Assembly: GCA_035938395.1 (NCBI GenBank) | Contig: DASZGY010000023.1 | Coordinates: 5,340-69,339, forward strand | Direction of reading: 5' to 3' | Length of the DNA stretch: 64,000 nucleotides | Source: Acidimicrobiia bacterium | GTDB lineage: Bacteria; Actinomycetota; Acidimicrobiia; IMCC26256; JACDBD01 | In this document: positions 6,891 to 28,479 of the stretch, in pieces | How the letters are laid out: each line of letters opens with the position of its first letter | Position numbering within the stretch: position 1 is the stretch's first letter | The notes under the pieces: model-generated | Database searches by the model: none | What the model was told of the DNA's origin: nothing | The model's input: only the letters and a program-made list of their open reading frames with translations | Made by a program: the position numbers and the translations under genes

Positions 6891-6938
6891 AGCCAGAAGC
6901 CACCGTCCCTTCACCCGCGATCGTTACCGTCGTTGGTG

Positions 6939-8468
6939 ATGACGGAGAGTGAGGTCGGCACGATCGGCGAGCCGGTCGAGCCGGGCGACTGGATGCGCCG
7001 CCTCGCCGAGCACTACGCCGGCTTCCGCCGGAACTCTCCCGACGACCGGCTGCTCATCGTGTTCGACATCGACGGGACCATCCTCGACCTGCGTCACATG
7101 GTCCGCCACGTGCTCCTGGACTACGACCGTGAGCGCGGCACCGACTTCTTCCACGGCTTGAGCGCGGAGGACGTCGATGTGCACGAGAACCGCGTGGAGG
7201 AGTTCCTCAGCGGCCGGACCCTCCCGGCCGACACACGCGAGCAGGTGCTCGCCTGGTACCTCGACCGCCGGTGGCAGCCCGAATCGGTCCTCGCCGCCCA
7301 CCGCCCTTATCGCGGAGTGCTCGAGGTCATCCGGTGGTTCCAGCTCCAGCCGGCGACGTTCGTGGGCCTCAACACGGGGCGGCCCGAGTGGCTGCGAGAC
7401 GAGACGCTCCGGTCGTTGAACGCGCTCGGTCGGGAGTATCGGGTCGAGTTCTCGTCCGAGCTCCTCGTCATGAACGAGCGCGGCGGCGAGGACGACGTTC
7501 TCGACAGCAAGGTCGCCGGCCTCCGGCGCCTCGCCGACGCCGGCTACCGGCCGTTCGCGGTCGTCGACAACGAGCCCGCCGTCATCGCGGCGCTGGCCGA
7601 AGCCGACGAGAGCAAGGAGATCCTGTTCCTGCAAGCGCAGACGCTGTCGGAGTCCCGCCGGATGCCGACGCCGCGCACGGTGCGCGGCCGCTCGTACGAC
7701 CTCACCGCGCTCGTCGCCGAGGGCGACCTTCCGCATCACGTGCAACTCGTGTGGCACGGCGTCAACGACGAGGCCAACGTGCGTCAGTTCCTCGGGTCGC
7801 GGGTCCATTGGGCCGAGTGCGACGTGCGCCGCGACCCGCTCGGGCGCATCGTGCTCCGGCACGATTCGTTCGAGAGGACTCCGTGGAGCCGCTCCGAACC
7901 GGTGTTCCTGCTCGACGACCTCCTGGCGCGTCTGCACGAGTACGGGCGCGGCGTCAAGCTCGATCTGAAGGAAGGCGACGTGATCCTCGCCGATGTGCTC
8001 GCCGCCGTCGACGCCCACGGCTTCGAAGACTCCGACCTGTGGTTCAACGGCCGGATCGAAGCGCTCGGCGAGGACGGGATCGGCCGGATCGTCGCCGCCT
8101 GCCCCGACGCCATCGTGCAGTGCCCGGTCGACTTCCTCGCGCCGCTCGTGCTCGCCGCCCCCGCGCGCGCCTGGGACACGATCAAGCTGCTGATGACCTG
8201 GGGTGTCAACCGCTTCTCGGTCAGCTGGGCCGGGGAGCACGCTCGCGCGCTGCTCGAGTCCCTCGAGGACTTCGGCTGCGAGGTCAACCTGTACGCCGTG
8301 CCCGACCTCGAGGCCTTCCTGCGCGCCGCGCTGATGCTCCCGACCTCGATCACGACCGACTTCAACTTCCCGGCGTGGCACTACTTCGGGCGCGGCGCCG
8401 GCGAGCACCACAAGTACCACCGCTACAAGGTCGACGCCCTCGTTCCCCCCACCACCGACGTCGCCTGA
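6939..8468 (+). CDS. fusion protein: N-terminal HAD-superfamily phosphatase + C-terminal PLC/GDPD-like phosphodiesterase domain
   Basis: HAD motif I FDIDGTILD, motif II VGLNTGRP and motif IV-like VVDNEP. The C-terminal half shows an H...E.D...HD pattern: WHGVNDEANVRQFL..VHWAECDVRRDPLGRIVLRHDSF. TTG 6933, GTG 6936 and ATG 6939 are all possible starts. Confidence 0.7.
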   Translation: MTESEVGTIGEPVEPGDWMRRLAEHYAGFRRNSPDDRLLIVFDIDGTILDLRHMVRHVLLDYDRERGTDFFHGLSAEDVDVHENRVEEFLSGRTLPADTREQVLAWYLDRRWQPESVLAAHRPYRGVLEVIRWFQLQPATFVGLNTGRPEWLRDETLRSLNALGREYRVEFSSELLVMNERGGEDDVLDSKVAGLRRLADAGYRPFAVVDNEPAVIAALAEADESKEILFLQAQTLSESRRMPTPRTVRGRSYDLTALVAEGDLPHHVQLVWHGVNDEANVRQFLGSRVHWAECDVRRDPLGRIVLRHDSFERTPWSRSEPVFLLDDLLARLHEYGRGVKLDLKEGDVILADVLAAVDAHGFEDSDLWFNGRIEALGEDGIGRIVAACPDAIVQCPVDFLAPLVLAAPARAWDTIKLLMTWGVNRFSVSWAGEHARALLESLEDFGCEVNLYAVPDLEAFLRAALMLPTSITTDFNFPAWHYFGRGAGEHHKYHRYKVDALVPPTTDVA

Positions 8469-9287: not shown

Positions 9288-10313
9288 TCATTCCGCGACC
9301 TTGACGATCAACTTGCCAGTGTTCTCGCCCGTGAACAGGCGCCGGAACGCGGCGGGAGCATTGTCGAGGCCGTCCACGATGTCCTCGGCGTAGCGGATGC
9401 GTCCCTCCTGCACCCACTGACCGAGTTGGAGGATGGCGTCGACGAACCGATCCCGGTAGTCGAGCAGGATGAACCCCTCCATCCGGCCGCGCTGCGGGAT
9501 GAGATTGATGACGTTCCGGGGACCCGGCGCCAGCGCGGCCGTGTCGTACTGCGAGATCGCGCCGCACAGCGCGATGCGTGCGTGCAGGTTGATCTGCCCG
9601 AGCACGGCGTCGAGGATCTCGCCGCCGACGTTGTCGAAGAAGACGTCGATCCCGTCGGGACATGTCTCGCGCAGCCGCGCTGCGACGTCCTCCGACTTGT
9701 AGTCGATCCACGCGTCGAAGCCGAGCTCGTCGGTGATCCATGCGCACTTCTCGGGACCGCCGGCGATGCCGACGACGCGGCAGCCGATGATCTTGCCGAT
9801 CTGTCCGGCGACGGACCCGACGGCGCCGGCTGCGCCGGACACGACGACGGTCTCGCCCTCCTTCGGTTGGGCCACGTCGAACATGCCGAAGTACGCGGTG
9901 AGCCCCGTGACACCGAGCACGCTGAGGAACGCGGTGATCGGTTCCTGGCGGGGGAGGGTCATCATCCCGTCGGGGCCGGCGCGGGCGATGGAGTACTCGG
10001 ACCACTGCATCATCCCGAACACGAGGTCGCCTTCCGAATACGCGGCGTTGCGGGACTGCACGACTTCGCCGAGCCCGCCGGCGCGCATGACGTCGCCGAC
10101 ATGGATGCCGGGCACGTACGTGTCGATGCCGTTCATCCACACCCGGATGGCGGGGTCGAGCGACAAGTAGAGCGTGCGCACGAGCGCTTCGCCGTCGGCG
10201 GGCTCGGGCACGGGCTCGTCGACCAACTCGAAGTCATCGTCGTCGAGCGCGCCGTCGGGATGCGACGCCATCTTGATCACGCGATGGGTCGTCGCGACCG
10301 GCGCGTCGGTCAC
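9288..10313 (-). CDS. NADP-dependent oxidoreductase, MDR superfamily (YncB/CurA/alkenal reductase type)
   Basis: GTG 10313 within ORF 9288..10922. Motifs GETVVVSGAAGAVGSVAGQIGK and FFDNVGGEILDAVL; the protein ends ENTGKLIVKV. The GTG overlaps the upstream stop (GTGA). Confidence 0.85.
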   Translation of the reverse strand: MTDAPVATTHRVIKMASHPDGALDDDDFELVDEPVPEPADGEALVRTLYLSLDPAIRVWMNGIDTYVPGIHVGDVMRAGGLGEVVQSRNAAYSEGDLVFGMMQWSEYSIARAGPDGMMTLPRQEPITAFLSVLGVTGLTAYFGMFDVAQPKEGETVVVSGAAGAVGSVAGQIGKIIGCRVVGIAGGPEKCAWITDELGFDAWIDYKSEDVAARLRETCPDGIDVFFDNVGGEILDAVLGQINLHARIALCGAISQYDTAALAPGPRNVINLIPQRGRMEGFILLDYRDRFVDAILQLGQWVQEGRIRYAEDIVDGLDNAPAAFRRLFTGENTGKLIVKVAE

Positions 10314-11605
10314 GTGGTCTCCTCGGGGAGCTCGATCCGGGCCAGCCACAGACCGGGCGCATCGAGCTCGGCCGGCGTCGGCAGCATCCGCTCGGCCTCC
10401 CACAGCCGGTTCAACCCCGCCGGCCCCGCCCGCTCGACGACACCGCGGCAGAACGCCGCCCCCTGGTCGTAGTGGTGGCGTTCGAGCTTCAGCCCGAGCA
10501 GACCTTCGATGAACACCTCGGCCTCGCCCCGCTCCACCCGGTGCCGCTGCATCGCCTCGTGAATCTGACGGAACGACGGGATGAGCTTCTCGCCGACGCG
10601 TTCGAGCACCGAGTCCGCGTAGCCCTCGAGCACGGCGGTGAGCAGCTGCAGCTGCCGGCGGGGCTCGTCCTGGCGCGGCGAGTGCATCGCGCCGAGCAGG
10701 GCGTCCGGATCCTCGGCGATCGATCCCAGGGTCGACGGGTCGTTGGGATCGACCGACCCGAACCGGTCCTCCAGCGCGCTCGGGTCCACTTCGTAGGCCG
10801 ACACGTACTCCGTCGACAACCGGACGAGGCGGTCCGGCACCCAGGGCACAGAACGTTCGGCTGCGTGCACGACCTCGTGCACCGCGACGTAGAAGCGCAG
10901 ATCGGCTCGTTCGAGGGACCACGCCTCCTCGAACGCGTCGATGTTCTGCACGACGAAGCTGAGGCTCGGCTCGTCGCTCGTCGGAAGGGGCAGGTCGTAC
11001 CGCCCAAGGGCGTGCTGGGCCAGGTAGCCGATCATCGAGCCGGCCTGCATCCCGAGCAGCGCCGGCGCCAGCATCTGCATCATCCCGCCGAGCATCTCGG
11101 GCCCGAACGGGCTCGCACCGGGGCCGCCGGGTGCCCCCCGCTCGCCGGATTCGAGCTCACCCGGCTCGGGTCCCGATTCGCGCATCACCTGCCCGAGCGT
11201 CGTCGCGAGTGCCTCGAGCACCGGACGCAGCGCGTCCAGCTGGAGTGCCGCCCAACCCTGGGGGCCGAGCGTGCGGAGCGGCGTCACGAACGTGGCCCCG
11301 AGATCCGTCTCGGCGACGACGTGCGTCTGCGCGGCGCGCGCGAGCTCTTCGAGCTGCTCGTGCGCGGCGGGATCGATCGGACGCTCGGTCCCACCTTCGA
11401 CCGCGACCCACGCCGCGATCTGCCGCGCCACGTCCCAGTTGATCGGCCCCTGCGACTGCAGCATCTGCATGAGCTGGGCCAGGTCGAAACCGCCGCCCCC
11501 GAACGGCATCCCCGGGAAGCCGGAGGACGACTGCGGCTCGGGCTGGTCGCGTTTGTCGGGTTTTCCGGGCTCGTCGGGGTCGCCAGGTTGAGGCTGGTCC
11601 GTCAC
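10310..11605 (-). CDS. zinc metalloprotease, DUF2342 / F420-biosynthesis-associated hydrolase family
   Basis: 431-aa ORF with a Pro/Asp-rich N-terminus, the metal motif VAVHEVVHAAE, and ...GAAFCRGVVERAG..LNRLWE, which is typical of this actinobacterial family. Confidence 0.75.
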   Translation of the reverse strand: MTDQPQPGDPDEPGKPDKRDQPEPQSSSGFPGMPFGGGGFDLAQLMQMLQSQGPINWDVARQIAAWVAVEGGTERPIDPAAHEQLEELARAAQTHVVAETDLGATFVTPLRTLGPQGWAALQLDALRPVLEALATTLGQVMRESGPEPGELESGERGAPGGPGASPFGPEMLGGMMQMLAPALLGMQAGSMIGYLAQHALGRYDLPLPTSDEPSLSFVVQNIDAFEEAWSLERADLRFYVAVHEVVHAAERSVPWVPDRLVRLSTEYVSAYEVDPSALEDRFGSVDPNDPSTLGSIAEDPDALLGAMHSPRQDEPRRQLQLLTAVLEGYADSVLERVGEKLIPSFRQIHEAMQRHRVERGEAEVFIEGLLGLKLERHHYDQGAAFCRGVVERAGPAGLNRLWEAERMLPTPAELDAPGLWLARIELPEETT

Positions 11606-13790: not shown

Positions 13791-14954
13791 TCACTGCGCG
13801 TTCCCGGGCTCGGCCGGGGCCGTGCCCGCGGTCGCGCTCGCATCCCGCTGGTCGCCGAGCTCGAGGCCCACTCGGCGCTGCCCGCGGTCGCGATACACCG
13901 TGACGTTGAGCTGCTCACCCGGCTTGCGCCGCCCGACCTCGCTCATCAGCTGGGAGACGCTCGAGATCGCAGTCGTCGAGCCGGCTTTCCCGACGTCGAC
14001 GATCACGTCGCCCTGCACGAGCCCCGCATTGTCGGCCGGGCCGCCGGGCACGACGCCCTGCACGCGTGCCCCGCCGCCGGTGCGGTCGGTGTCGTCGGTG
14101 GCCCAGACGCCGAGCCAGCCGTGCTCCGCGCTCCCGCGTGCAGTCAGCTGCGAGGCGACGTCGCGTGCCTGGTCGATCGGGAGCGCCAGACCCGCGGTGG
14201 AGGAGTCCGGCGGCACGACGAGGATGCCGACGACCTCGCCCCGGGTGTCGACGAGCGCGCCGCCCGAGTGCTCGCCGCTCGCGGTCATGTTCGTCTGAAT
14301 GAGACCGGCCACCGAGACGCCCCCGTCCGACACGAACGCTCGGTTGAACGATCCGATCTCGCCCACGTCGACCCAGCGGTGGCGTCCCGATTCGGACGCC
14401 GCCACGCCGACAACCTGCTGACCAGCCTCGAGGCCGGCCGACGCCCCGAGCTGCGCGGGTTGCATGCTCGTCCCGTCGACCGTCAGGACGGCGAGGTCGG
14501 AGACGGGGTCGCTGGCGTCCACGGCTGCCGGCAGCGTGCGGCCATCTGACGTGACGACCGCCACCGCGTCCGCGCCGTCGACGGCGTGCGCCGTCGTCAC
14601 GATCTGCCCCGCCTGCACGCAGACTCCCGACGCCCGTCCCGTCTCGTTGCCGCGCGCGGTCCGCACCGCGACCACGCTGGGCGCCAGGGTCGCCACCATC
14701 CTTTGGATCGCGCCGCTGCGCGCGCTCGGCGTGGGCCGGCTCGAGTTGTTGACGGTCATGAGCGCGACGACACCGGCGACGGCCGCGACCACGGTCAGGC
14801 CGGCGGCGAGCGCAACCCAGCGACCGCGTCGCGACGCCCGAGGCCGTGTCGTCGCGACGAACGACGTCATCTCGGTGGGGTGAACCCAGATCCGATCAGA
14901 CGGGTCGGGCGGCGGGCCGCCGGAACTCTCGTCCTCCGGCTCGTTGCCCGGCAT
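13791..14954 (-). CDS. HtrA-like trypsin-family serine protease with PDZ domain, membrane anchored
   Basis: ATG 14954 (MPGNEPED). TM segment WVALAAGLTVVAAVAGVVAL. Protease motifs TTAHAV, DLAVL and GEHSGGALV. C-terminal PDZ GLVQGDVIVDVG. Confidence 0.85.
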   Translation of the reverse strand: MPGNEPEDESSGGPPPDPSDRIWVHPTEMTSFVATTRPRASRRGRWVALAAGLTVVAAVAGVVALMTVNNSSRPTPSARSGAIQRMVATLAPSVVAVRTARGNETGRASGVCVQAGQIVTTAHAVDGADAVAVVTSDGRTLPAAVDASDPVSDLAVLTVDGTSMQPAQLGASAGLEAGQQVVGVAASESGRHRWVDVGEIGSFNRAFVSDGGVSVAGLIQTNMTASGEHSGGALVDTRGEVVGILVVPPDSSTAGLALPIDQARDVASQLTARGSAEHGWLGVWATDDTDRTGGGARVQGVVPGGPADNAGLVQGDVIVDVGKAGSTTAISSVSQLMSEVGRRKPGEQLNVTVYRDRGQRRVGLELGDQRDASATAGTAPAEPGNAQ

Positions 14955-15122
14955 AGCGCGGAAGTGTACGACCGTGTTCCTGAACAACGGTCGCGGCTTG
15001 TCGGTCGCCGTCGCAAGCTCCGGGCCTGCGCCGACGGTCGGCAAAGCCGCCGCCGCCGCGGCCTCTCGGCTCGCGGCGCGCCTTCCCGGCCGACAACGGG
15101 GTGCCGCAGTACGCTGATTTTC

Positions 15123-15602
15123 GTGCTCGCGCCCCCTGACGGACGCGACTGGGTTGCCCTCACGTCGCTGCCGCTTCCCGCCGAAGCTGCCAACGCCTGG
15201 GTCACCACACCGGGCAGCGGCGCAGTCGTCTCCTTCGTCGGAGTCGTGCGCGAGCACTCCGAGGGCCGGACCGGTGTTCGGGGACTCACGTACGAGGCGT
15301 ACGAACAGGAGGCGACGCGCCGGCTCGCAGAGATCGCCGACGAGCTGCGGCGGCGCTGGCCCGATATCGAGCGCGTCGCGCTCCTGCACCGCGTCGGTGA
15401 TCTCGCGCTCTCCGAACCGTCCGTGATCGTGGTGGTCTCGGCGCCGCATCGCGCCGAGGCGTTCGAGGCGGCCCGGTTCGGCATCGACACGCTGAAGGAG
15501 ACCGTGCCCATCTGGAAGCGCGAACACTGGGACGACGGCTCCGAATGGGCCGAGCACGCCAGCCCCGTCCGCCCGGTCCGCCGGTCGACCAAGGCCGGGT
15601 GA
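15123..15602 (+). CDS. moaE: molybdopterin synthase catalytic subunit
   Basis: GAVVSFVGVVREHSEGR..V..LTYEAYE...ALLHRVGDL...EPSVIVVVSAPHRAEAFEAARFGIDTLKETVPIWKRE. The start is taken at GTG 15123, but the true start is uncertain. Confidence 0.85.
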   Translation: MLAPPDGRDWVALTSLPLPAEAANAWVTTPGSGAVVSFVGVVREHSEGRTGVRGLTYEAYEQEATRRLAEIADELRRRWPDIERVALLHRVGDLALSEPSVIVVVSAPHRAEAFEAARFGIDTLKETVPIWKREHWDDGSEWAEHASPVRPVRRSTKAG

Positions 15603-15608
15603 TCGGTC

Positions 15609-16616
15609 CTGGCCCGGGATCTCGCCATCGACCTGGGTACCGCCAACACGCTGGTCTATTCACGCGGCGAAGGCATCATCGTCAACGAGCCGACGGTCAT
15701 CGCGCTCAACAACCGCACCAACGAGGTGCTCGCGATCGGTCACGAGGCGTGGCAGATGATCGGCCGCACGCCCGGGTACATCGTCGCCGTCCGGCCCCTG
15801 CGCGGCGGCGCGATCACGGACTTCGAGATCACCGAACGTCTCCTCCGCATGCTCTTCCAGCGTGCGGGTGTGTCGCGCTTCTACCGGACGCGCGTGCTCA
15901 TCTGCGTGCCGTCGGCGATCACGCACGTCGAGCAGCGCGCTGTACTCGAGGCCGCCCGGCGCGCCGGCGCCGCTCAGACGTTCCTGATCGAGCAGCCGAT
16001 GGCCGCCGCCATCGGCGCGTCGCTGCCCATCCACGAGCCGCTCGGCAACATGATCGTCGACATCGGCGGCGGTACCTCCGAGGTCGCAGTCATCTCACTC
16101 GGTGGCGTCGTCGCTCTGGAGGCGGTTCGCGTCGGCGGGTTCGACATGGACGCCGCCATACAGGCCTACGTGCGGCGCGAGTACGGCGTGGCGATCGGCG
16201 AGCGCACGGGCGAAGAGATCAAGGTCGCGATCGGTTCGGCCTTTTCGACTGACGACCAGTACAAGGCCGAAGTACGCGGACGCGACCTGACGACCGGTAC
16301 CGCCAAGATCATCGTGCTGAGCCCGGAGGAGGTGCGCGAGGCGATCGACGAGCCAGTGCGCGCCATCCTCGAGATCATCGTGCGGGCGCTCGGGCAGACG
16401 CCGCCCGAGCTCGCGCAGGACCTCATCCACCAGGGCGTCCACCTCGTCGGCGGAGGCGGCATGCTGCGTGGCATGGACCACCGCATCTCGAAGGAGACGG
16501 CGCTGCCCGTCCACCTCGTGGACGCCCCCCTCGAATGCGTCGTGCACGGCGCCGGCCGTTGCCTCGAGAGCTTCGACAACCTCAAAGAGATGTTCATGGA
16601 CCGACCGCATTCGTAA
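15609..16616 (+). CDS. mreB: rod-shape-determining actin homologue MreB (start assigned to CTG)
   Basis: ARDLAIDLGTANTLVYSRGEGIIVNEPTVIAL...DIGGGTSEVAVISLGG...LVGGGGMLRG. The phosphate-1 motif DLGTANT lies upstream of the first ATG/GTG/TTG (15726). The frame opens directly after the in-frame moaE TGA (15600-15602). Confidence 0.9.
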   Translation: MARDLAIDLGTANTLVYSRGEGIIVNEPTVIALNNRTNEVLAIGHEAWQMIGRTPGYIVAVRPLRGGAITDFEITERLLRMLFQRAGVSRFYRTRVLICVPSAITHVEQRAVLEAARRAGAAQTFLIEQPMAAAIGASLPIHEPLGNMIVDIGGGTSEVAVISLGGVVALEAVRVGGFDMDAAIQAYVRREYGVAIGERTGEEIKVAIGSAFSTDDQYKAEVRGRDLTTGTAKIIVLSPEEVREAIDEPVRAILEIIVRALGQTPPELAQDLIHQGVHLVGGGGMLRGMDHRISKETALPVHLVDAPLECVVHGAGRCLESFDNLKEMFMDRPHS

Positions 16617-16734: not shown

Positions 16735-17385
16735 TCATTCGGAAAGCAGGTCCTCGGCCGCCTGTCTCACTTGCCAGTCGCGGTCTTCGAGCGCGGTGCG
16801 TAATGCGTCGTCGACCTCGCCGCCGTCGAACGGCGCCAGCGCGAGGACGGCACGGCGGCGGACGGCGGGCTTGTCACGGCAGGCGGCGATGATGGCGGGA
16901 AGGCCGGCGGGGTCACCCAGGGCGCCGAGCGCCGCCACCGCAGCCTCGCGGGCGAGGGGGTCGTCGTGCATGCCCGCGACGGCGGCGAGCGCGGGGACCG
17001 CCCGGGCGCGCACTGCGGCGGCGCCGAGCTCGCCGAGCGCCCACGCGCTCGCTTCGATCACGGTGACGTCGTCGTCGCCGAGGAGCTTGAGCAGCGGTCG
17101 GGCGGGCGCGCCGAGCCCGGGGGCGAGGTCCGCGGCGCGCCGCCGCACGGCCGGCTCGGCGTCGGTCATCGCGATCCGCCACGCCGCGGTCGCCCGTCGC
17201 CGTCCGCCGGCCCGGGCGAGCGCGCCGAGCGCCGCCGCCCGCACACGCGGATCGGGATCATCCCGGGCGGCACGTTCGAGATCAGCGGGTGCACCGGCAG
17301 GGAGTCGGGCGCGCAGGCCGAGCGCGGCCGCGTCCGCGGCTCGTTCGACCGCTGTTCGCTGCTCGGCGCGGTCACGGGTGGGCAC
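16735..17385 (-). CDS. HEAT-repeat protein
   Basis: Repeated D..VR..AA.ALG.LG units (DPDPRVRAAALGALARAG, EPAVRRRAADL, DPLAREAAVAALGALGDP, DWQVRQAAEDLL). The start is taken at GTG 17385, and alternatives exist. Confidence 0.6.
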   Translation of the reverse strand: MPTRDRAEQRTAVERAADAAALGLRARLPAGAPADLERAARDDPDPRVRAAALGALARAGGRRRATAAWRIAMTDAEPAVRRRAADLAPGLGAPARPLLKLLGDDDVTVIEASAWALGELGAAAVRARAVPALAAVAGMHDDPLAREAAVAALGALGDPAGLPAIIAACRDKPAVRRRAVLALAPFDGGEVDDALRTALEDRDWQVRQAAEDLLSE

Positions 17386-17443
17386 GGCTAGACGATAGGG
17401 AGCCGCGACCGTTGGCCGGGGTGGTGCATGGCAGGCTCTGTCG

Positions 17444-18562
17444 ATGAACGAGGAGCGGCGCGAGCCCTTTCCGTCTCCGCCCCCGGCGATGCCGCCGTCG
17501 CGCCGGCGGCGCCCGCTCGTCGCTGCCGGCACGATCGCCGGCGTCGTGGCCGTGCTGCTGCTCCTCGCCGGCGCCCTGATCCGCCTGCCGTACGTGCTGA
17601 TCGCCCCGGGAGCGGCGAGCTCGGTGGATCGCGTCGTCAAGGTCACGGGCGCGCCGACGTACGCGCACCGCGGCCAGCTGCTGTTCCTCACGGTCTCCGT
17701 GTCGAGCGATCGCCCCAACGCGTTCGCGGTCCTGTCGGGCTGGCTGGACGACAACACCGACGTGGTTTCGGAGGATGAAGTGCTCCAGGGGCGCTCCCGC
17801 GCCGAGGACGCGCGGCTCAACAAGCTGGAGATGGCCGACTCGCAGATGACCGCCAAGCAGGTCGCGCTCGAGCGGCTCGGTTACACCGTTCCGGTGAGTG
17901 GGGCCGGCGCCGTCGTCACTGCGGTGCAGAAGCGCTCTCCGGCCGACGGCAAGCTCCGGGTCGGCGACGTCATCACCGAGGTGGACGGCCAACCGGTCAC
18001 GCTCGCCGAGCAGCTCGGGCCGATCGTGCGCAGCGGGCCCCCGGGGCAGCCGGTCGCGTTCACCGTGGATCGCGGCGGCAAGAGCATCCCGGTGACGGTC
18101 GTGAGCCGCGCCACGGCGCAAGGTGCCTGCCAGGGCCGCGCCCAAGTCGGCGTCTCGACCTCGACCCGCAGCGAGAAGTTCGACTTCCCGGTCAACGTCG
18201 CGATCGACACCGGCCGCGTGAGCGGCCCGTCGGCCGGGCTCGCGTTCACCCTCACGATCCTCGACGAACTCACTCCCGGCGACCTGACCGGCGGCAAGAA
18301 GGTGGCCGTGACCGGCACGATCCGTTCCGACGGCAGCGTGGGGCCCATCGGGGGCGCCCAGCAGAAAGCGGTGACGGCCCGCCGCGCGGGAGCGAAGCTG
18401 TTCCTCGTCCCGAGCGAGGAGGTCAAGGAAGCGCGCAGCCGCGCCGGCGGGATGAAGGTCGTGGGCATCGGGACCCTCGACGACGCCCTGCGGGAGCTGA
18501 AGAACTTCGGCGGCCAGGACGCCGGCGTGCCGCCCGCGTCACCCTCTACAGCCTGCCCTTAG
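17444..18562 (+). CDS. PDZ-domain S16 Lon-like protease (YlbL/SdrC type), membrane anchored
   Basis: N-terminal [38 protein letters not shown] and the Lon protease C-terminal domain with [16 protein letters not shown] and AVTGTI...VGPIGG..QK. Confidence 0.85.
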
Positions 18563-18582
18563 CCCCAATACAGTTGCGCCCG

Positions 18583-20517
18583 ATGTCCACCCACGAGCCT
18601 CGCCCGGGCGGCTCGGACGAGCCCCGGCTGACGCCCGCCCAGATCGAGCGGCAGGACTTCCCGAAGGCCCGGAAGGGCCTCGACGAGCGGGAGGTGCGCG
18701 CTTTCCTCCGCCGCGTGGCCGACGAGTTCGACGCCATGCACCGGCGACTCGCCGACCTCGAGAGCCAGCTCCGCCACCCCCCGTTGCCGTCCCGCGACCA
18801 ACTCGTGGAGCAGGTAGGGCAGGAGGTGGCGCGCACCCTGCGTTCGGCCGAGGAGTCGGCCGAGAAGGTGGCGCAACGAGCCCGTGAAGAGGCGTCGAGG
18901 GTCGAGCGAGCCGCGCGCGAGGAATCGGCGCGCATTCGCACCGAACAGCTCGAGCAGGCGAACAAGGACTCGCGCGCGACCGTCGAGACCGCACGCGAGC
19001 GGGGTCGGGAGATGGTCGCCGAGGCCCGGGCGCTCCGCGAGCGCGTGCTCTCGGACCTGAACCGCAGACGCGACACGCTGCGCGCGTACATCGATCAGCT
19101 GCGGGAGGATCGAGATCGCTTCGCCGAGGCGTACCTCGTCGTGCGCGACACGGTGGCCGATGCGAACGAGAAGCTCTCGCGCTTCGGCGCCGGTCGTCCG
19201 TTCCCACCGGTCACCGCCGACGCCGGGCCGCCGATCTCGTATCCGCCCGACGCGGAGGCGGCACCGGACCATTCCGTGCCGCGCGGCAGTCCCGTGCCGC
19301 GCATCAGTTCCGCGCCGCGCCGTTCCGCGCCCGAACCTCCACCCTGGGTGCAACGCGAGTCGTCGAAACCCGAACGCGAGCCGCCGTCGACGCAGCCTTC
19401 GCCGCGTCCCGCGACCGGTATCGGTCTGGGCGAGCTGCCCGGCCGAGCGGAACCGGAACCATCGCCGCCACCGGCGCCATCTCCCGAACCGCAGCCCGAG
19501 GCCGCGGAAGCGGCCCCCGCGGCAACCGCCGCGCCGGAACCCGAGCCCGAACCCGAACCGGAGCCGGAACCGGAACCGGGACCCGTCGCCGAACGCGAGC
19601 CGGAACCGGCGCCCGTCGCGTCCGAGCCCGAGCCGCAACCGGCGTCCGAGCCCGACAGCGACGTCGACGCCCTCTTCGAGCGCATTCGCGGCATGCGGGG
19701 GCAAACGGTCGAGGAGCCCCGCATCGACTTCGACGACGCCGGCGCGAAGGTCGTCGGTGGCGAGGCCGATCACGAGGCGGACGTGGCGGACGGGGACGTC
19801 CTCGTCGAGTCGGCGCCCGTACCGCGCCCGGCGGCGACCGACGGCGACCCCGAGCTGCTGGCGCGGCGCGACGAGCTCCTCACCCCGATCGCCCGCGAGC
19901 TCGTCCGGCACTGCAAGCGCGTCCTGCAGAACGAGCAGAACGAGATCCTCGACGCGCTGCGGCGCCAGCGTCGCCGCCCGACCCCGGAGAAGCTCCTGCC
20001 GCCGCTCTCCCAACAGGTGACGGCCTGGTCGGAGGTGCTGGCTCCGGCGATCGTCGAGGCGTACGTCGCGGCACGCACTGCTGCCGAACCGGACGGGGGG
20101 CCCGTGAGCGACGCTCCGCAGCGGATGGTCACCGGCATGGTCGAGGTTCTCGTCACACCGTTGCGCGACCGCCTTCTCGCGGCCGTCGACGAGACGCTCG
20201 GCGACGACGCCAACCCCGACGTGATCGCCCATCGCATTGGCGCGCGCTACCGCGAATGGAAGGGAGAGGAGCTCGACAACCGCATCAGCGATCTGCTCGC
20301 CGCCGTGTACGCACGCGGTGTCTACGACGCCGCGCCGGAAGGAGCACTCCTCCGTTGGGTTCCCGCCGAGCAGGGCCAGTGCCCGGACGCCGACGACAAC
20401 GCGCTCGAGCCCACACGGCGCGGGGAGGGCTTCCCGACCGGTCAGCCCTTCCCGCCTGCGCATCCCGGTTGCCGGTGCCTGCTCGCAGTCGTGGACGAAC
20501 CGCGCGGCTCCGCGTGA
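18583..20517 (+). CDS. DivIVA-domain protein with coiled coil, Pro/Glu-rich linker and phage Mu F / SPP1 gp7-like C-terminal region
   Basis: DivIVA N-terminus [34 protein letters not shown], then a long charged helical region and [15 protein letters not shown]. The C-terminal end [19 protein letters not shown]...[12 protein letters not shown] resembles the pP.HpnCRC end of Mu F-like head-morphogenesis domains. TTG 18574 is an alternative start. Confidence 0.8.
19534..19578 (+). repeat. (CCN-GAR)7 hexanucleotide tandem repeat encoding (PE)7 inside the DivIVA gene
   Basis: ccg gaa ccc gag ccc gaa ccc gaa ccg gag ccg gaa ccg gaa ccg, in frame with the CDS. Confidence 0.9.
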
Positions 20518-20572
20518 GCGCTTGACCGCGCGACCAAGAAGCTCGATACCCCGGCAGTAGGCTTCGCCACCG

Positions 20573-23533
20573 ATGCGGGTGCCTACAGCACAAGGTCGCC
20601 GGCGCGGCCTTCGCGTGCGCGGGTGGATCATCGCCGGTGTCATCCTGCTGGTGATCCTCCTGTTCAGCTTGCGGGGGCTGGCGGGCTTCTACACCGATTT
20701 CCTGTGGTTCGATTCCGTCGGCCAGGGCGGCACCTGGCGAGAGCTGCTCTCGGCCAAGGTCGTGCCGGCGCTCGTCTTCACGGTCGTGTTCTTCGTGATC
20801 ATGCTGACGAGCCTGCTGATCGCAGATCGCCTCGCCCCGAAGTACCGGTCCATGGGGCCCGAGGACGAGCTCGTCGAGCGGTACCAGAACTTCGTGTCGG
20901 ACTACCAGGGCCGCATCCGCATCGGCGTCGCCCTGTTCTTCGCGTTGATCGCGGGCGTAGGCGTCTCCTCGCAATGGCAGGAGTGGGTGCTCTTCACGCA
21001 CCGGGTCGACTTCGGCGTCAAGGACCCGCAGTTCAACAAGGACATCGGCTTCTACGTCTTCCAGCTCCCGTTCCTGCGCTTCATCGCCAACTGGCTCTTC
21101 GCCGGCCTCGTGATCGTGCTGCTCGTGACGGCCGTCGCGCACTACCTCAACGGCGGCATCCGCTTCCAGAGCCCGTTCCAGCGGGTGACGCCACAGGTCA
21201 AGGCGCACCTCTCCGTGATCCTCGCCGTCATGGCGCTCGTCAAGACGGCGCAGTACTACCTCGACCGCTTCAACCTCGACTTCTCGCAACGCGGTGTCGT
21301 CACCGGGGCCAGCTACACGGACGTGAAAGCCCAGCTCCCGGCGCTGAACCTGTTGATCTTCATCTCGATCGTCGCCGCCGGGTTGTTCATCTGGAACATC
21401 TGGCGGCGGGGCTGGGTGCTCCCGATCATCGCGGTCGGGCTCTGGGGGTTCGTCTCGATCGTGATCGGCACCATCTATCCCGCCGGGGTCCAGAAGTTTC
21501 GGGTGGAGCCCAACGAGTTCCAGAACGAGCAGCGCTACATCGAGCGCAACATCGCGTCGACGCGGAACGCGTTCGGGCTCGCCTCCGTCAAGGACCAGCC
21601 CTTCGACTATCAGCAGAACCTCGACGCCTCGGTCGTCAACCAGAACAGGCCATCCATCGACAACGCGCGCCTGTGGGATCCGAACGTCATCCAGTCGACG
21701 TACCAGTCGCTCCAGGGCCTCCAGACCTTCTACAAGGTCGACAACGTCGACGTTGACCGCTACACCGTCGGCGACCAGACCCAACAGGTCGTGCTCTCGG
21801 CGCGCGAGATCAGCCAGGGTGAGCTTCCGAGCCAGTCGTGGGTGAACCAGCACCTCGTGTACACACACGGTTACGGGATCATCGCTTCGCCGACGAACGT
21901 CTCCGCCCAGGACGGGAACCCCGACTTCCTCCTCAGCGGGATTCCCGTCCCCAAGGACGCCCCGATCACCCTCAACCAGCCCGGCTTGTATTTCGGCGAG
22001 CACCAACCCGGCTACGCGCTCGTGGACGCCAAGCAACAAGAGTTCGACTACTCGCGGCCCGGTCGAGCCGACGCGACAACGCGCTACAAGGGCAAGGACG
22101 GCGTCAAGCTCGACAACCCGATCCGCCGGGCCGCGTTCGCGCTGCGTTTCGGCGACATCAACCCGCTCATCTCGGGGCAGGTCGGTGGCGGCACGAAGGT
22201 GCTGTACGTCCGCGACATCAAGGATCGCGTGACCAAGCTCGCCCCGTTCCTGAACTTCGATGCGGATCCGTACCCGGTCGTGAGCGGCGGGCGCGTGACG
22301 TGGGTGCTCGACGCGTACACAACGACGAGTCGTTATCCGTACTCGCAGATGACGTCGGGACCGAGCGACTCGGGTCTCAGCCACAACTTCAACTACGTCC
22401 GCAACTCGGTGAAGGCGACGGTCGACGCCTACGACGGCACGGTGAAGTTCTACGTGATCGACCCCAAGGACCCACTGATCCGGTCGTACCGGAAGGCGTT
22501 CCCCGACCTGTTCACCGACTTCAGCAAGATGCCGAAGGACCTTCAGGCGCACCTGCGCTACCCCGAGGACCTGTTCCGGGTGCAGTCGGACATCTACTCC
22601 CGCTACCACGTCACCGAGAGCCGGCGCTTCTACCAGGGGAGCGCAAAGTGGCTCCTGTCCCCCGACCCCGGCTCGGGCCCGCTGACGGCGGCACAGCTGC
22701 AGGCGGTTGCTCCGACCCCGGACTCGACGACCGGCAGGGGGAGGGGCGGCGCGACCTCGACCAGCGAGCGAATGCGGCCCTACTACCTCTACATCAACCA
22801 GCCGGGAGAGCAGCAGCCGAGCTTCATCATCCTCCAGCCGTTCGTGCCGGTGTCGGCCGGGAACAAACAGACGCGCCTGGTTTCGTTCATGACCGCGAGC
22901 TCGGATCCGAGGAACTACGGCCAACTGTCGGCATTCGAGATGCCGCAAGGGGAGTCCGTTCTGGGACCGGTGCAGATCGACAACCGGATCAAGAGCACGC
23001 CGGCCGTTTCCCAACAGCTCACGCTGCTGAACCAGCAGGGCTCGACCGTGATCCAGGGGAGCCTGCAGCTCATCCCCGTCGGCAACTCGATTCTCTACAT
23101 TCGCCCCTTCTACGTGCAGGCGGCCGGAGCATCGAGCTATCCGCAGTTCCGCTTCGTCGTCGTCGCGTATGCCGGGCAAGACCCCGTCCTCGCCTCGACG
23201 GTCAACGACGGCCTCGCGCAACTGTTCGGCCAGCCACCGACGCAACCACTGCCCGGTGGTGGCGCGGCGCCGGCGGCGCCGGCGACCCCGCCCGCGGGCG
23301 GCAACGTGCAGGACCTACTGAACCAGGCCGCCGCGAAATACCAGCAGGCCCAGGATGCGTTGCGTGGGGGCGATCTCGGTACCTATCAGCAATTGATCAA
23401 TCAGGTCGGCGACCTCCTCAACCAGGCTCGCCAGGCGGCCGGCGGGACGAGCGGCGGCGCGTCGACCCCGACCCCGACGACGACCGCACCCGCTCGTCAG
23501 ACTGCTGCCAAGGGCGGTGCCGCCGAGCCCTGA
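20573..23533 (+). CDS. UPF0182 family large membrane protein
   Basis: 986 aa. The N-terminal multi-TM region with FYTDFLWFDSVG, and later YVRNSVKATVDAYDG and LRYPEDLFRVQ, are characteristic of UPF0182 (the family of the mycobacterial Rv3193c-like proteins). Confidence 0.9.
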   Translation: MRVPTAQGRRRGLRVRGWIIAGVILLVILLFSLRGLAGFYTDFLWFDSVGQGGTWRELLSAKVVPALVFTVVFFVIMLTSLLIADRLAPKYRSMGPEDELVERYQNFVSDYQGRIRIGVALFFALIAGVGVSSQWQEWVLFTHRVDFGVKDPQFNKDIGFYVFQLPFLRFIANWLFAGLVIVLLVTAVAHYLNGGIRFQSPFQRVTPQVKAHLSVILAVMALVKTAQYYLDRFNLDFSQRGVVTGASYTDVKAQLPALNLLIFISIVAAGLFIWNIWRRGWVLPIIAVGLWGFVSIVIGTIYPAGVQKFRVEPNEFQNEQRYIERNIASTRNAFGLASVKDQPFDYQQNLDASVVNQNRPSIDNARLWDPNVIQSTYQSLQGLQTFYKVDNVDVDRYTVGDQTQQVVLSAREISQGELPSQSWVNQHLVYTHGYGIIASPTNVSAQDGNPDFLLSGIPVPKDAPITLNQPGLYFGEHQPGYALVDAKQQEFDYSRPGRADATTRYKGKDGVKLDNPIRRAAFALRFGDINPLISGQVGGGTKVLYVRDIKDRVTKLAPFLNFDADPYPVVSGGRVTWVLDAYTTTSRYPYSQMTSGPSDSGLSHNFNYVRNSVKATVDAYDGTVKFYVIDPKDPLIRSYRKAFPDLFTDFSKMPKDLQAHLRYPEDLFRVQSDIYSRYHVTESRRFYQGSAKWLLSPDPGSGPLTAAQLQAVAPTPDSTTGRGRGGATSTSERMRPYYLYINQPGEQQPSFIILQPFVPVSAGNKQTRLVSFMTASSDPRNYGQLSAFEMPQGESVLGPVQIDNRIKSTPAVSQQLTLLNQQGSTVIQGSLQLIPVGNSILYIRPFYVQAAGASSYPQFRFVVVAYAGQDPVLASTVNDGLAQLFGQPPTQPLPGGGAAPAAPATPPAGGNVQDLLNQAAAKYQQAQDALRGGDLGTYQQLINQVGDLLNQARQAAGGTSGGASTPTPTTTAPARQTAAKGGAAEP

Positions 23534-23689: not shown

Positions 23690-25099
23690 ATGGCTGTCAG
23701 CGGAATCGATCTCGGCAAGTACAAGCTCGGCTGGGCCGACAGCACGGACGACTACGCCTACATCCCGAAGAAGGGCCTGAACGAGGAGATCGTCCGCGAG
23801 ATCTCCGGGCAGAAGTCCGAGCCCGACTGGATGCGGGACTTCCGGCTGAAGTCGCTGAAGCGGTTCGAGCGCAAGCCGATGCTCGACTGGTTCGCCAAGA
23901 ACATGCCGACCATCGACTTCGACGACATCTACTACTACCTGAAGCCGACCGACAAGGGAGAGGTCGCCGACAGCTGGGACATGCTCCCCGAGTCGATGAA
24001 GGCCACGTACGAGAAGCTCGGCATCCCCGAGGCGGAGCGGAAGTATCTCGCGGGCGTCACGGCGCAGTTCGAGAGCGAGACCGTCTACCACAAGAACCGT
24101 GACGAGCTGGCCAAGCAGGGTGTCCTGTTCACCGACATGGACACCGCAGTGCGCGAGTACCCCGAGATCGTGCGCGAGCACTTCGCCACGGTCATCCCCC
24201 CGGGTGACAACAAGTTCGCCGCGCTCAACTCGACCGTGTGGTCGGGCGGCTCGTTCATCTACGTGCCGCCGGGCGTGCACGTCGAGATGCCGCTGCAGGC
24301 GTACTTCCGCATCAACGCCGAGAACGCGGGCCAGTTCGAGCGGACGCTGATCATCGCCGACGAGGGCGCTTCGGTGCACTACGTCGAGGGGTGCTCGGCG
24401 CCGATCTACACGGGCGACTCGCTGCACTCGGCCGTGGTGGAGCTCGTCGCCAAGCCCGGCGCGCGCATCCGGTACACGACCATCCAGAACTGGTCGCCGA
24501 ACGTCTACAACCTGGTCACGAAGCGGGCGAAGGCCGAGCGTGAGGCGACCGTCGAGTGGATCGACGGCAACATCGGTTCGAAGTTGACGATGAAGTACCC
24601 GTCGGTCGTGATGACGGGGCCGAAGGCCCACGGCGAGGTGCTGTCGGTGGCGTACGCCGGCGAAGGCATGCACCAGGACGCCGGCGCCAAGATGACCCAC
24701 GTCGCGCCCGACACCACGTCCATCATCGAGTCGAAGTCGATCTCGAAGGACGGCGGGCGCACGACCTACCGCGGCCTGGTGAAGGTCGAGGAGGGCGCGC
24801 ACAACGTGAAGAGCCACGTGCGCTGCGACGCGCTGATCCTCGACGAGGACAGCCGGTCCGACACCTACCCGTACATGGAGATCGAGGAGAAGGACGCCCG
24901 CATCGGGCACGAGGCCACGGTCTCGAAGGTCGGTGAGGACCAGATCTTCTACCTGATGAGCCGCGGGCTCAGCGAGCAGCAGGCGACGGCGATGATCGTG
25001 AACGGCTTCATCGAGCCGATCGTGAAGACGCTGCCGATGGAGTACGCCGTCGAGCTGAGCCGCCTGATCGAGCTCAACATGGAAGGAGCGGTTGGCTAA
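23690..25099 (+). CDS. sufB: Fe-S cluster assembly protein SufB
   Basis: 469 aa with typical SufB sequence throughout (FRLKSLKRFERKPM, SGGSFIYVPPGV, GCSAPIY, HEATVSKV..DQIFYLMSRGL). GGAGG lies 9 nt upstream of the ATG. Confidence 0.97.
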   Translation: MAVSGIDLGKYKLGWADSTDDYAYIPKKGLNEEIVREISGQKSEPDWMRDFRLKSLKRFERKPMLDWFAKNMPTIDFDDIYYYLKPTDKGEVADSWDMLPESMKATYEKLGIPEAERKYLAGVTAQFESETVYHKNRDELAKQGVLFTDMDTAVREYPEIVREHFATVIPPGDNKFAALNSTVWSGGSFIYVPPGVHVEMPLQAYFRINAENAGQFERTLIIADEGASVHYVEGCSAPIYTGDSLHSAVVELVAKPGARIRYTTIQNWSPNVYNLVTKRAKAEREATVEWIDGNIGSKLTMKYPSVVMTGPKAHGEVLSVAYAGEGMHQDAGAKMTHVAPDTTSIIESKSISKDGGRTTYRGLVKVEEGAHNVKSHVRCDALILDEDSRSDTYPYMEIEEKDARIGHEATVSKVGEDQIFYLMSRGLSEQQATAMIVNGFIEPIVKTLPMEYAVELSRLIELNMEGAVG

Positions 25100-27549: not shown

Positions 27550-28479
27550 CTACGCGTGCTGGCCCGGCGGCGGGATGGGGTCGGGCATCGTCGGTGGCTG
27601 CGGGCTGGGCGCGAGCGGCGTCGATGAGGTCACGTTGGCGGGCTTACCGCCGAACACGTGCACGGGATCGCCGCGGTTCACGAGCGTGTGGAAGTACTCG
27701 GCGATGTGCATCGGGATGCGTACGCAGCCGTGGGACGCGGGTGTGGTCGGCACCGAGTCGTAGCCGTGCACCGCGATGCCCTTGTTGAAGTAGAACGGGT
27801 TGTACAGCTGGCCGAGCGGTGACTTGTCCCAACCCGGGCGGAACTCGGTATAGGTGAAGTCGCCGGAGGGCGTATTGGCGTCCTCGCACACGTGACTGGT
27901 CGGGTTCTCACGAGGCGTGTCGTAGCAATAGTTCTCACCCGAGCCGGACGACATGGTCGTGATCAGCTTGGGCTGGTAGTTCTCGTAGAGCGTCAGGGTC
28001 TGCCCGGTGATGTCGACCTCGGTGCGGTTCGGCTCCGGCGTCGCGGCCATCGGTTGCTTGTACTGGAAGAAGTTGAGCGAGAACACGTCGGCGTCGGTGA
28101 TGCGACCGGTCGGGGCCGCGCCCCCGAGCTTCTGGAGCGTCTGCACCGCATAGGCGGTCTTCTGGTCGTAGATGCCGTCGACCGGGCCGGGATCGAAGTG
28201 GATGTCGGCCATCCGCTGCTCGTACGCCTGCACCTCCGGCCCTTGGGAGCCGGGGCCCACCACTCCGCCCGGCACCGGGGGGAGTGCTGCCCACGGCGGC
28301 TGGATGATCGTCGTGGGCGGTGGGGCCGCGGTCGTCGGCGCCGGAGCAGCGGTCGTCGTGGGCGCGGCGGTGGTGGGCGTCGGCGCGGCGCGCTTCGTGG
28401 TCTTTTCGTCGCGCAGCGCCGAACCGGCGACGGCGATGCCCGAGACGAAGAGCGCCGCGACCACCAACGAGACGAGCAC
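27550..28479 (-). CDS. L,D-transpeptidase (YkuD) with peptidoglycan-binding domain
   Basis: N-terminal TM, a Thr/Pro/Ala linker, a PG_binding-like segment (GPEVQAYEQRMADIHFDPGPVDGIYDQKTAYAVQTLQK) and the catalytic motif HGYDSVPTTPASHGCVRIP. Confidence 0.85.
   Translation of the reverse strand: MLVSLVVAALFVSGIAVAGSALRDEKTTKRAAPTPTTAAPTTTAAPAPTTAAPPPTTIIQPPWAALPPVPGGVVGPGSQGPEVQAYEQRMADIHFDPGPVDGIYDQKTAYAVQTLQKLGGAAPTGRITDADVFSLNFFQYKQPMAATPEPNRTEVDITGQTLTLYENYQPKLITTMSSGSGENYCYDTPRENPTSHVCEDANTPSGDFTYTEFRPGWDKSPLGQLYNPFYFNKGIAVHGYDSVPTTPASHGCVRIPMHIAEYFHTLVNRGDPVHVFGGKPANVTSSTPLAPSPQPPTMPDPIPPPGQHA

Follow-up and report, generated by a model that had tools for sequence, protein, structure and literature searches.

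A DivIVA-domain protein with a C-terminal phage MuF-like module encoded between a PDZ-Lon protease and a UPF0182 protein in Acidimicrobiia

A 64,000-nucleotide (nt) stretch of DNA from an Acidimicrobiia bacterium (GenBank assembly GCA_035938395.1, contig DASZGY010000023.1, positions 5,340 to 69,339 of the forward strand; G+C content ca. 70%), hereafter called the window, contains a gene whose product combines an N-terminal DivIVA domain, a long linker and a C-terminal module resembling the MuF/SPP1 gp7 proteins of phage heads. The gene lies between those of a membrane-anchored protease with PDZ and Lon_C domains (PDZ-Lon) and of a large UPF0182 membrane protein (Table 1). Its open reading frame (ORF), for which TTG at 18574 offers an alternative start, had been described on the plus strand in an earlier sequence-only reading, and the C-terminal letters quoted there, ending in PPAHPGCRC, match the translation; the observation of a DivIVA-linker-MuF-like ORF in the window is thus confirmed. 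The G+C content at third codon positions (GC3) lies between 0.70 and 0.97 in every 40-codon block of this frame, linker included, compared with 0.90–0.96 in the flanking genes. As GC3 is uniformly high in one frame throughout, we regard the DivIVA-MuF-like gene as a single continuous coding sequence. An antisense ORF of 694 amino acids (aa) at 18559-20643 (minus strand) spans the whole gene and is an artefact of the high G+C content, the frame-specific GC3 favouring the plus-strand gene; other long antisense ORFs in the window are the usual by-product of such a base composition.

Table 1. Coordinates of the DivIVA-MuF-like gene, its parts and its two neighbours in the window, and related loci lacking the DivIVA head (locus handles in the position column).
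Feature	Position	Strand	Basis
PDZ + Lon_C protease (S16, SepM/YlbL-like), membrane-anchored	17444..18562	+	PF13180, PF05362; NF041438
DivIVA-linker-MuF-like gene	18583..20517	+	ORF list, ATG 18583, stop 20515-20517, 644 aa plus stop
DivIVA N-terminal head (aa 16-64)	18628..18774	+	PF05103, TIGR03544, AlphaFold2 pLDDT 84-92, loop column counts
Single long alpha-helix, DivIVA-type coiled coil/oligomerisation region (aa 71-202)	18793..19188	+	AlphaFold2, conservation
Disordered acidic Pro/Ala/Glu-rich tether, part 1 (aa 203-359)	19189..19659	+	AlphaFold2, composition
Short conserved helix in linker (aa 360-374)	19660..19704	+	occupancy 0.99, AlphaFold2 pLDDT 74
Disordered tether, part 2 (aa 375-420)	19705..19842	+	aa 375-408 pLDDT <50, low conservation
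MuF/SPP1 gp7-like module (aa 421-640)	19843..20502	+	AlphaFold2, hhalign, Foldseek, phrog_2662
C-terminal knuckle, putative metal ligands	20347..20493	+	W-x7-C-x2-[CA]...PPAHPGCRC, conserved columns
UPF0182 membrane protein, 986 aa	20573..23533	+	PF03699 916.7 bits
Headless loci	L001, L003/L004/L056, L031, L033, L035, L037, L042, L061, L067		
Headless loci, continued	L068, L070, L076, L081, L085		

A full-length AlphaFold2 model built with 72 homologues and residue conservation in the 72-sequence alignment revealed the same four islands in the polypeptide. The N-terminal part matches PF05103 (Pfam; 56.9 bits, cutoff 28, aa 16-138) and TIGR03544 (35.5 bits, cutoff 22, aa 16-49) and is followed by a single helix of 132 residues, which is well conserved within the family. 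The predicted local distance difference test (pLDDT) values are 82-96 for the head (aa 18-64) and the helix together and above 90 over most of the helix. The DivIVA N-terminus with a coiled coil reported in the sequence-only reading is therefore well founded. The protein shares with DivIVA, Wag31 and GpsB the succession of a head, whose loop is conserved in the family consensus, and a long coiled coil. DivIVA heads bind negatively curved membrane at cell poles and septa and their coiled coils oligomerise, the membrane-binding loop of Bacillus subtilis DivIVA containing the hydrophobic and basic pair F17-R18. The corresponding loop reads R30-K31-G32 in the present protein and F-R-G in the family consensus (F in 41 and R in 64 of the 72 members). 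The score of 18.7 bits against NF050102 (DivIVA_Wag31) is far below its cutoff of 260, which marks the protein as a DivIVA-domain paralogue distinct from the housekeeping DivIVA; the genomic context is also not the ftsZ-sepF-divIVA cluster. Whereas canonical DivIVA ends soon after the coiled coil and recruits its partners non-covalently, this protein adds ca. 440 residues, consisting of a disordered acidic tether of ca. 215 aa and a folded, apparently phage-derived domain.

The non-globular linker (aa 206-420) had been estimated at ca. 150 residues; its actual length is ca. 215, and it is broken by a short conserved helix. It is composed of 25% Pro, 14% Ala, 14% Glu and 7% Ser and carries a net charge of -28. 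In its first part, residues 204-358 show pLDDT values below 50 save a few isolated residues and a stretch around 292-303 (block mean 54), and the polypeptide contains an (EP)n repeat, with tandem repeats of the DNA at 19534-19648. The length of the linker is hypervariable, with extremes of 121 and 406 aa among the family members. Within this otherwise unconserved and unalignable sequence the short helix has a mean top-residue frequency of 0.74 and the family consensus V-D-x-L-F-A-R-L-R-A, in which F365 is found in 71 of 72 members, and its motif is kept even in most of the variants devoid of a DivIVA domain. The helix has the appearance of a candidate interaction motif of the short linear type or, alternatively, of an amphipathic helix that contacts the membrane.

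The C-terminal module is predicted with high confidence both in the full-length model (pLDDT 92-98, aa 422-640) and when modelled alone with 48 homologues (pLDDT 89.5, predicted template modelling score 0.85). In the predicted fold, a small beta/knuckle element comes after a bundle of four long helices. The knuckle contains W592 and the putative metal ligands C600, H627, C630 and C632, all of them invariant or nearly so in the family, and may thus bind a metal ion by its Cys/His cluster. The PPAHPGCRC segment is identical in Pfam-validated viral MuF proteins, in which the knuckle motif is invariant as well. Invariant motifs specific to the Acidimicrobiia family include KRxLQDEQNxLLDxxRR and FPTGQ.

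The assignment of this module to MuF could not be made with curated single models. The sequence-only reading had proposed profile searches for both DivIVA and Phage_Mu_F and had named the lack of a significant Mu F-like match as a refutation. The DivIVA models are clearly passed, while the MuF models do not reach significance, and a plain profile search taken literally thus goes against the reading. PF04233 (Phage_Mu_F, gathering threshold 29.6 bits) gave no match at E ≤ 1 for this protein and weak matches in only 3 of 72 family members (best E 0.0016), PF06152 (MuF2) is likewise absent from the Pfam matches of the protein, and TIGR01641 (phageSPP1_gp7) scored 13.7 bits (E 0.06; cutoff 39.65) over just 17 residues (aa 619-635). 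Searching the module against PDB sequences with phmmer returned only spurious matches of designed repeat proteins in the disordered N-terminal stretch, and tblastn against 50,697 phage genomes yielded nothing significant (E ≥ 0.6). The sub-significant phage matches are almost all head-module genes, those examined lying directly downstream of a portal gene, and several leads are recognised by PF04233, namely gp17 of the Arthrobacter phages Salgado and Edmundo (45 bits) and gp3 of the Sphingomonas phage Lucius (22.6 bits). In the reverse direction, Salgado gp17, which truly belongs to PF04233, is matched by a hidden Markov model (HMM) of the module with 32.7 bits. Among the PHROG families, phrog_2662, a portal-fusion family, aligns over 195 residues (E 1e-4), while several head-morphogenesis families touch just the last 25 residues of the protein.

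Profile-profile and structural comparisons carry the relationship further. Lucius gp3 belongs to a family of 82 homologues, many of them annotated with PF04233 or as "SPP1 gp7 family", and an alignment of a subset of these gave, in hhalign against the Acidimicrobiia family, a probability of 91.7% (E 7.7e-7) over 185 columns which span aa 32-242 of the 245-aa query, the helical part included. A scan of IMG/VR provided 24 distant viral relatives of 27-45% identity; those examined are PF04233 proteins (45-58 bits), positioned directly after a portal gene in three of the four for which an upstream ORF was scanned. Aligned with Pfam-validated viral MuF proteins, the module-only alignment reached a probability of 98.7% (E 2.8e-16, 93 columns), a value that is partly circular and inflated because the viral loci had been fetched by the query's own motif pattern, the comparison with the Lucius family being unbiased in this respect. 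A Foldseek search of the module model against BFVD, in which predicted structures are compared with a predicted model, resulted in 16 matches at E ≤ 1e-3 (from E 1.5e-5; TMq 0.37-0.72), the named top matches being nearly all minor capsid, head morphogenesis, portal-fusion or MuF-like proteins. The same search against 350,542 PDB chains gave no meaningful match (best E 0.19, generic helical bundles) and no solved MuF-like structure; since the same model finds viral and no PDB counterparts, the viral matches are not a generic artefact of all-helical proteins. In addition, the IGARYRE helix upstream of the knuckle resembles the R..LIARTE-like helix of viral MuF (R..[LI][IG]AR..E). One viral relative (L106) is a fusion of MuF with an ADP-ribosyltransferase. 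The idea that MuF itself might be an ADP-ribosyltransferase fold was dropped, as the literature and the all-helical prediction disagree with it; the transferase is a cargo fused to MuF.

From these profile and structure comparisons we conclude that the module most probably belongs to the MuF superfamily as a divergent member, if membership is defined by HMM-HMM homology, and that it is situated below the thresholds of curated single models. The superfamily has previously been enlarged by MuF3 and MuF4 on the basis of HMM-HMM homology (Jamet et al. 2017, PMC5576092). The module might instead be an unrelated helical bundle which gained its Cys/His knuckle independently, as the sub-threshold scores of the curated models, the tblastn phage matches all at E ≥ 0.6, the identity of just 17-28% to phage proteins in the hhalign alignments and root-mean-square deviations of 5-13 Å in some Foldseek alignments might suggest. 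We consider such a convergence highly improbable, given that the profile-profile alignment takes in the helical part over its 185 columns, that phrog_2662 extends over 195 residues, that no comparable match exists among the PDB chains and that the matched proteins are consistently portal-adjacent, Pfam-validated MuF proteins with an IGARYRE-like helix in common. The resemblance noticed in the sequence-only reading is hence not due to a fortuitous CRC tail, as the hhalign and Foldseek matches to viral proteins cover the whole module, and the structure prediction recommended there produced a confident model which matches viral head proteins.

To our knowledge, MuF domains are essentially restricted to phages and prophages, and we know of only one established activity of MuF/gp7 in phages, the tight binding to the oligomeric portal ring, by which cargo is brought into capsids. 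About one in three tailed phages encodes such a domain, and 96% of the surveyed bacterial muf genes reside in prophages or prophage remnants (PMC5576092). SPP1 gp7 binds the portal oligomer strongly and is thereby targeted to the procapsid (PMC6316719). With the Mu F (gp30)/SPP1 gp7 family the module shares a bundle of long helices of ca. 220 aa with a C-terminal knuckle, the signature W...C..C...G...F...PPAHPGCRC and the upstream R..[LI][IG]AR..E helix. In phages, however, MuF is N-terminal or stand-alone and encoded in the head module of a phage or prophage downstream of the portal gene, whereas the module described here is C-terminal, placed behind a cellular localisation domain, and encoded outside of any phage or prophage with no adjacent portal or terminase gene. 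MuF domains also serve as carriers for fused effectors (PMC5512222; PMC5576092), and MuF polymorphic toxins or effector fusions resemble the present protein in that MuF forms one half of a two-part, linker-joined polypeptide. There, an N-terminal MuF carrier is combined with a C-terminal toxin delivered via the capsid. The present protein has the opposite order, its MuF-like domain is partnered by a membrane scaffold instead of an effector, and no capsid exists to be loaded. While both domains are already known, the combination and orientation of an N-terminal localisation domain with a C-terminal MuF-like domain and its stable cellular domestication are new. A literature search found nothing linking DivIVA with MuF and nothing on DivIVA proteins of Acidimicrobiia, in line with the earlier remark that no function had been described for this combination.

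Relatives of the protein are encoded in 294 genomes representing GTDB species, and the locus statistics given below refer to the best 80 loci among them. These loci all derive from Acidimicrobiia or from metagenome-assembled genomes (MAGs) of unclassified Actinomycetota/Actinomycetes, save one contig labelled "uncultured Bifidobacteriaceae"; the taxonomic survey of the architecture proposed in the sequence-only reading thus reveals a class-wide distribution in Acidimicrobiia and no peculiarity of the window. In a set of 5.8 billion proteins 455 close homologues of the module were detected, none of them carrying a precomputed Pfam domain. A profile search of 1.84 billion representatives gave 2,358 clusters at E ≤ 1e-3, of which 916 reach E ≤ 1e-30; many matched proteins have 600-870 aa and carry the module at the extreme C-terminus. 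The best 150 of the 2,358 matches all belong to the same family, and ca. 790 weaker ones fall between E 1e-10 and 1e-3, the range in which phage MuF proteins or other architectures would appear. Viral contigs of IMG/VR contain no family member at more than 45% identity. As the database names of the family are only "DivIVA domain-containing protein" or "hypothetical protein", more than 2,000 clusters could be re-annotated.

The fusion itself was scrutinised because a few loci show the two parts apart. Among them, DivIVA and module are separate or out of frame in L002, L008, L013, L021, L022, L047, L048, L073 and L074, as would be expected if the fusion were an assembly or annotation artefact joining separate DivIVA and module genes. 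We nevertheless reject this explanation, whose probability we regard as practically negligible: the coding signal runs unbroken in one frame, 70 of the 72 long family members in the databases possess a Pfam DivIVA domain, and head and module occupy one open frame in most loci with sufficient upstream sequence, independent short-read assemblies included. The split cases, moreover, cluster in long-read "MFD" MAGs. The concern raised with the sequence-only reading that two genes had been joined is thereby removed. Split or frameshifted genes were also noted in L044, L057, L059, L063, L071 and L072, again in "MFD" MAGs; in L002 the neighbouring UPF0182, SufB and MreB genes are fragmented as well, and in P0012 (from L022) the C-terminal motif is frameshifted. 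Sequencing errors are the probable cause of these cases, by which an automated annotation would be misled.

The DivIVA head is genuinely missing from about a dozen loci (e.g. L001, L003/L056 and L031; Table 1). They form one sub-clade on a neighbour-joining tree of the module, which implies that the fusion is ancestral and the head was lost secondarily. Most of them keep the F-A-R-L-R motif, some retain the distal coiled coil and others none of it, and all are found in the slot between PDZ-Lon and UPF0182. The motif helix and the module accordingly form the invariant core of the family.

The genomic position of the gene is conserved as well. The PDZ-Lon stop codon precedes its start by 11-20 nt, the UPF0182 gene begins 55 nt after its stop codon, and no terminator-like site was found between the three genes, which are therefore arranged in an operon-like layout. 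The PDZ-Lon protein attains 152 bits with NF041438 (SepM family), below the cutoff of this model. Across the loci, PDZ-Lon invariably precedes (52/52) and UPF0182 invariably follows (75/75) the gene on the same strand, within a wider conserved order of HtrA, MoaE, MreB, a HEAT-repeat protein, the triad, SufB and SufD. A pair of PDZ-Lon (Rv3194c-like) and UPF0182 (Rv3193c-like) genes is known from other actinobacteria, and all loci examined here have its two members on either side of the gene, in the same orientation. In Mycobacterium tuberculosis, the two genes are presumably directly adjacent with nothing between them, and the DivIVA-MuF-like gene seems to have been inserted between them specifically in Acidimicrobiia.

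Phage families (portal, terminase, capsid, integrase) are absent from the 24 ORFs scanned from ca. 14.5 kb upstream to 18 kb downstream of the gene, all of which have non-phage Pfam matches except one ORF without a match (6933-8468). The absence of nearby phage genes stated in the sequence-only reading was thus reproduced, and extends to the non-phage neighbours in the 75 and 52 loci mentioned above; the term "domesticated" used there is likewise justified by the class-wide conservation in a fixed, non-phage syntenic slot. Screening with PADLOC at E ≤ 0.01 gave no match for the DivIVA-MuF-like protein or UPF0182 and only a weak generic Lon-domain match for PDZ-Lon. These data bear on the idea of an anti-phage decoy, in which a membrane-tethered MuF mimic would sequester phage portal proteins and so block capsid assembly or DNA packaging. 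A decoy would make direct use of the sole established activity of MuF/gp7, binding of the portal oligomer, in a domain captured from phage and kept by the host, and the hypervariable linker could be read as a sign of fast evolution. Unlike in arms-race genes, however, strong purifying selection acts on the module, in which dozens of residues are invariant throughout the class, the gene has no PADLOC match and occupies a fixed housekeeping slot (UPF0182 in 75/75, PDZ-Lon in 52/52 loci) and not a defence island, and it is present in one copy per examined locus, save the MAG SMAG_U9515 with two contigs (L016 and L017). We therefore judge a decoy function to be very unlikely.

The charge distribution of the protein is relevant to another conceivable role, in which the DivIVA-anchored module would fasten chromosomal DNA, or nucleic acid of another kind, to a pole or septum, comparable to the DivIVA-RacA and DivIVA-ParB systems. 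DivIVA proteins anchor chromosome-segregation factors in other bacteria, SPP1 gp7 has been described as a DNA-binding protein, and the module contains many invariant Arg/Lys residues (K445, R446, R460, R528 and R557) besides the Cys/His knuckle. The module as a whole is nevertheless acidic, with a net charge of -9 (family median -10, range -19 to +3), and the adjoining tether carries -28, an acidity that disfavours DNA binding in general; a helix-turn-helix or other nucleic-acid-binding Pfam domain is missing in the protein, and the conserved neighbours are envelope and proteostasis genes instead of par, smc or replication genes. Tethering of DNA thus appears to be decidedly improbable, if somewhat less so than a decoy.

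Based on the computed domain identities, MuF homology, disorder, conservation, synteny and absence of a phage context we infer a membrane or polar localisation and an adaptor function, and propose, with a confidence slightly better than even, that the protein is a membrane- or pole-anchored scaffold which presents a MuF-derived protein-binding adaptor to a partner for which the PDZ-Lon/UPF0182 machinery is the leading candidate. In this scenario, the DivIVA head and coiled coil would oligomerise and anchor the cytoplasmic protein at the membrane, and the long tether would allow the module and the motif helix to capture an oligomeric partner and to hold it there. Because portal binding is the only established activity of MuF, we propose the module as a protein-binding adaptor, which might act in analogy to the binding of the portal ring by phage MuF. 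The partner might be the PDZ-Lon (S16) protease or UPF0182 encoded by the flanking genes, or FtsH acting together with them, and envelope proteostasis could in this way be coupled to the places where the cell grows or divides. That the partner is the PDZ-Lon/UPF0182 machinery is the weakest step of this proposal, and we put it forward only as a tentative and rather doubtful suggestion. YlbL/DdcP, a PDZ-Lon protease of B. subtilis, degrades YneA. This protease figures in work on the recovery from the DNA-damage division checkpoint enforced by YneA (PMC6051672). UPF0182 is predicted to form a tetrameric dome and has been linked to membrane-protein quality control by FtsH/YccA through phenotypes that correlate in three actinobacteria (bioRxiv 10.1101/2025.11.14.688347). 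One might go further and imagine that MuF was captured early in Acidimicrobiia and repurposed as a DivIVA-tethered docking module for a ring- or dome-shaped assembly such as the UPF0182 tetramer or the FtsH hexamer, thereby positioning membrane-protein quality control at poles and septa; in this specific form we consider the scenario speculative and unlikely.

Several points weigh against the proposed scaffold and adaptor. The hydrophobic Phe of the membrane-binding loop is replaced by Arg, a variant which this protein shares with other family members (17 of 72 in total), and the second Cys of the CxxC element, present in 67 of 72 members, is Ala (A603) in this protein; both substitutions, as read from the alignment, may affect the functions ascribed to the respective elements. 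The headless clade keeps the gene in its slot, so that the core function can evidently do without targeting by DivIVA. Neither of the curated MuF models, PF04233 and TIGR01641, recognises the module. Synteny, which suggests a functional link, need not mean physical contact. The bulk of UPF0182, like PDZ-Lon, presumably lies outside the cytoplasm, whereas the DivIVA-MuF-like protein has neither a signal peptide nor a transmembrane segment. Finally, the family is known from sequences of uncultured MAG lineages, and any function is deduced entirely from these.

The family exemplifies a stable, class-wide domestication of a MuF domain in a housekeeping locus, covalently joined to a well-known polarity scaffold. 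If the docking function is correct, it would be the first cellular function of a MuF domain and would reveal the surface which MuF recognises, and the protein would offer a tractable non-viral system for asking what MuF binds. The scaffold and adaptor proposal, if true, would also imply a new mode of partner recruitment by DivIVA in the form of a built-in adaptor on a long tether, and would provide a cytoplasmic handle on the poorly understood PDZ-Lon/UPF0182 pair of envelope proteostasis, which is conserved across Actinobacteria.

A number of further observations concern the surroundings of the gene. The ORF at 6933-8468 (plus strand, 511 aa), whose coding signal is very strong (GC3 0.94), matches no Pfam or NCBIfam model at the thresholds applied and encodes an uncharacterised protein. 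A Zincin_2 (PF10103) metallopeptidase is encoded at 10310-11605 on the minus strand, ca. 6 kb upstream of the PDZ-Lon/UPF0182 cluster. Its M. tuberculosis homologue, Rv3195, lies directly beside Rv3194c and Rv3193c, an arrangement that would suggest a rearranged ancient actinobacterial neighbourhood of envelope proteases. Between MreB and PDZ-Lon, a HEAT-repeat gene (16735-17400, minus strand) is followed by a small ORF, an arrangement kept in all four related loci compared (L001-L004). SufB of the window (23690-25099, 469 aa) is free of an intein, while that of a related Acidimicrobiia genome (L001, 10230-12782, 850 aa) contains one (Intein_splicing and LAGLIDADG_3). HtrA (13791-15557) and MreB (15726-16616) are encoded near the DivIVA-MuF-like gene, and two L,D-transpeptidase (YkuD) genes, of which one also encodes a PG_binding_1 domain, are found at 27550-28479 and 31326-32141 on the minus strand, at most 12 kb downstream; with the YkuD, MreB and HtrA genes nearby, the region is rich in cell-envelope functions.

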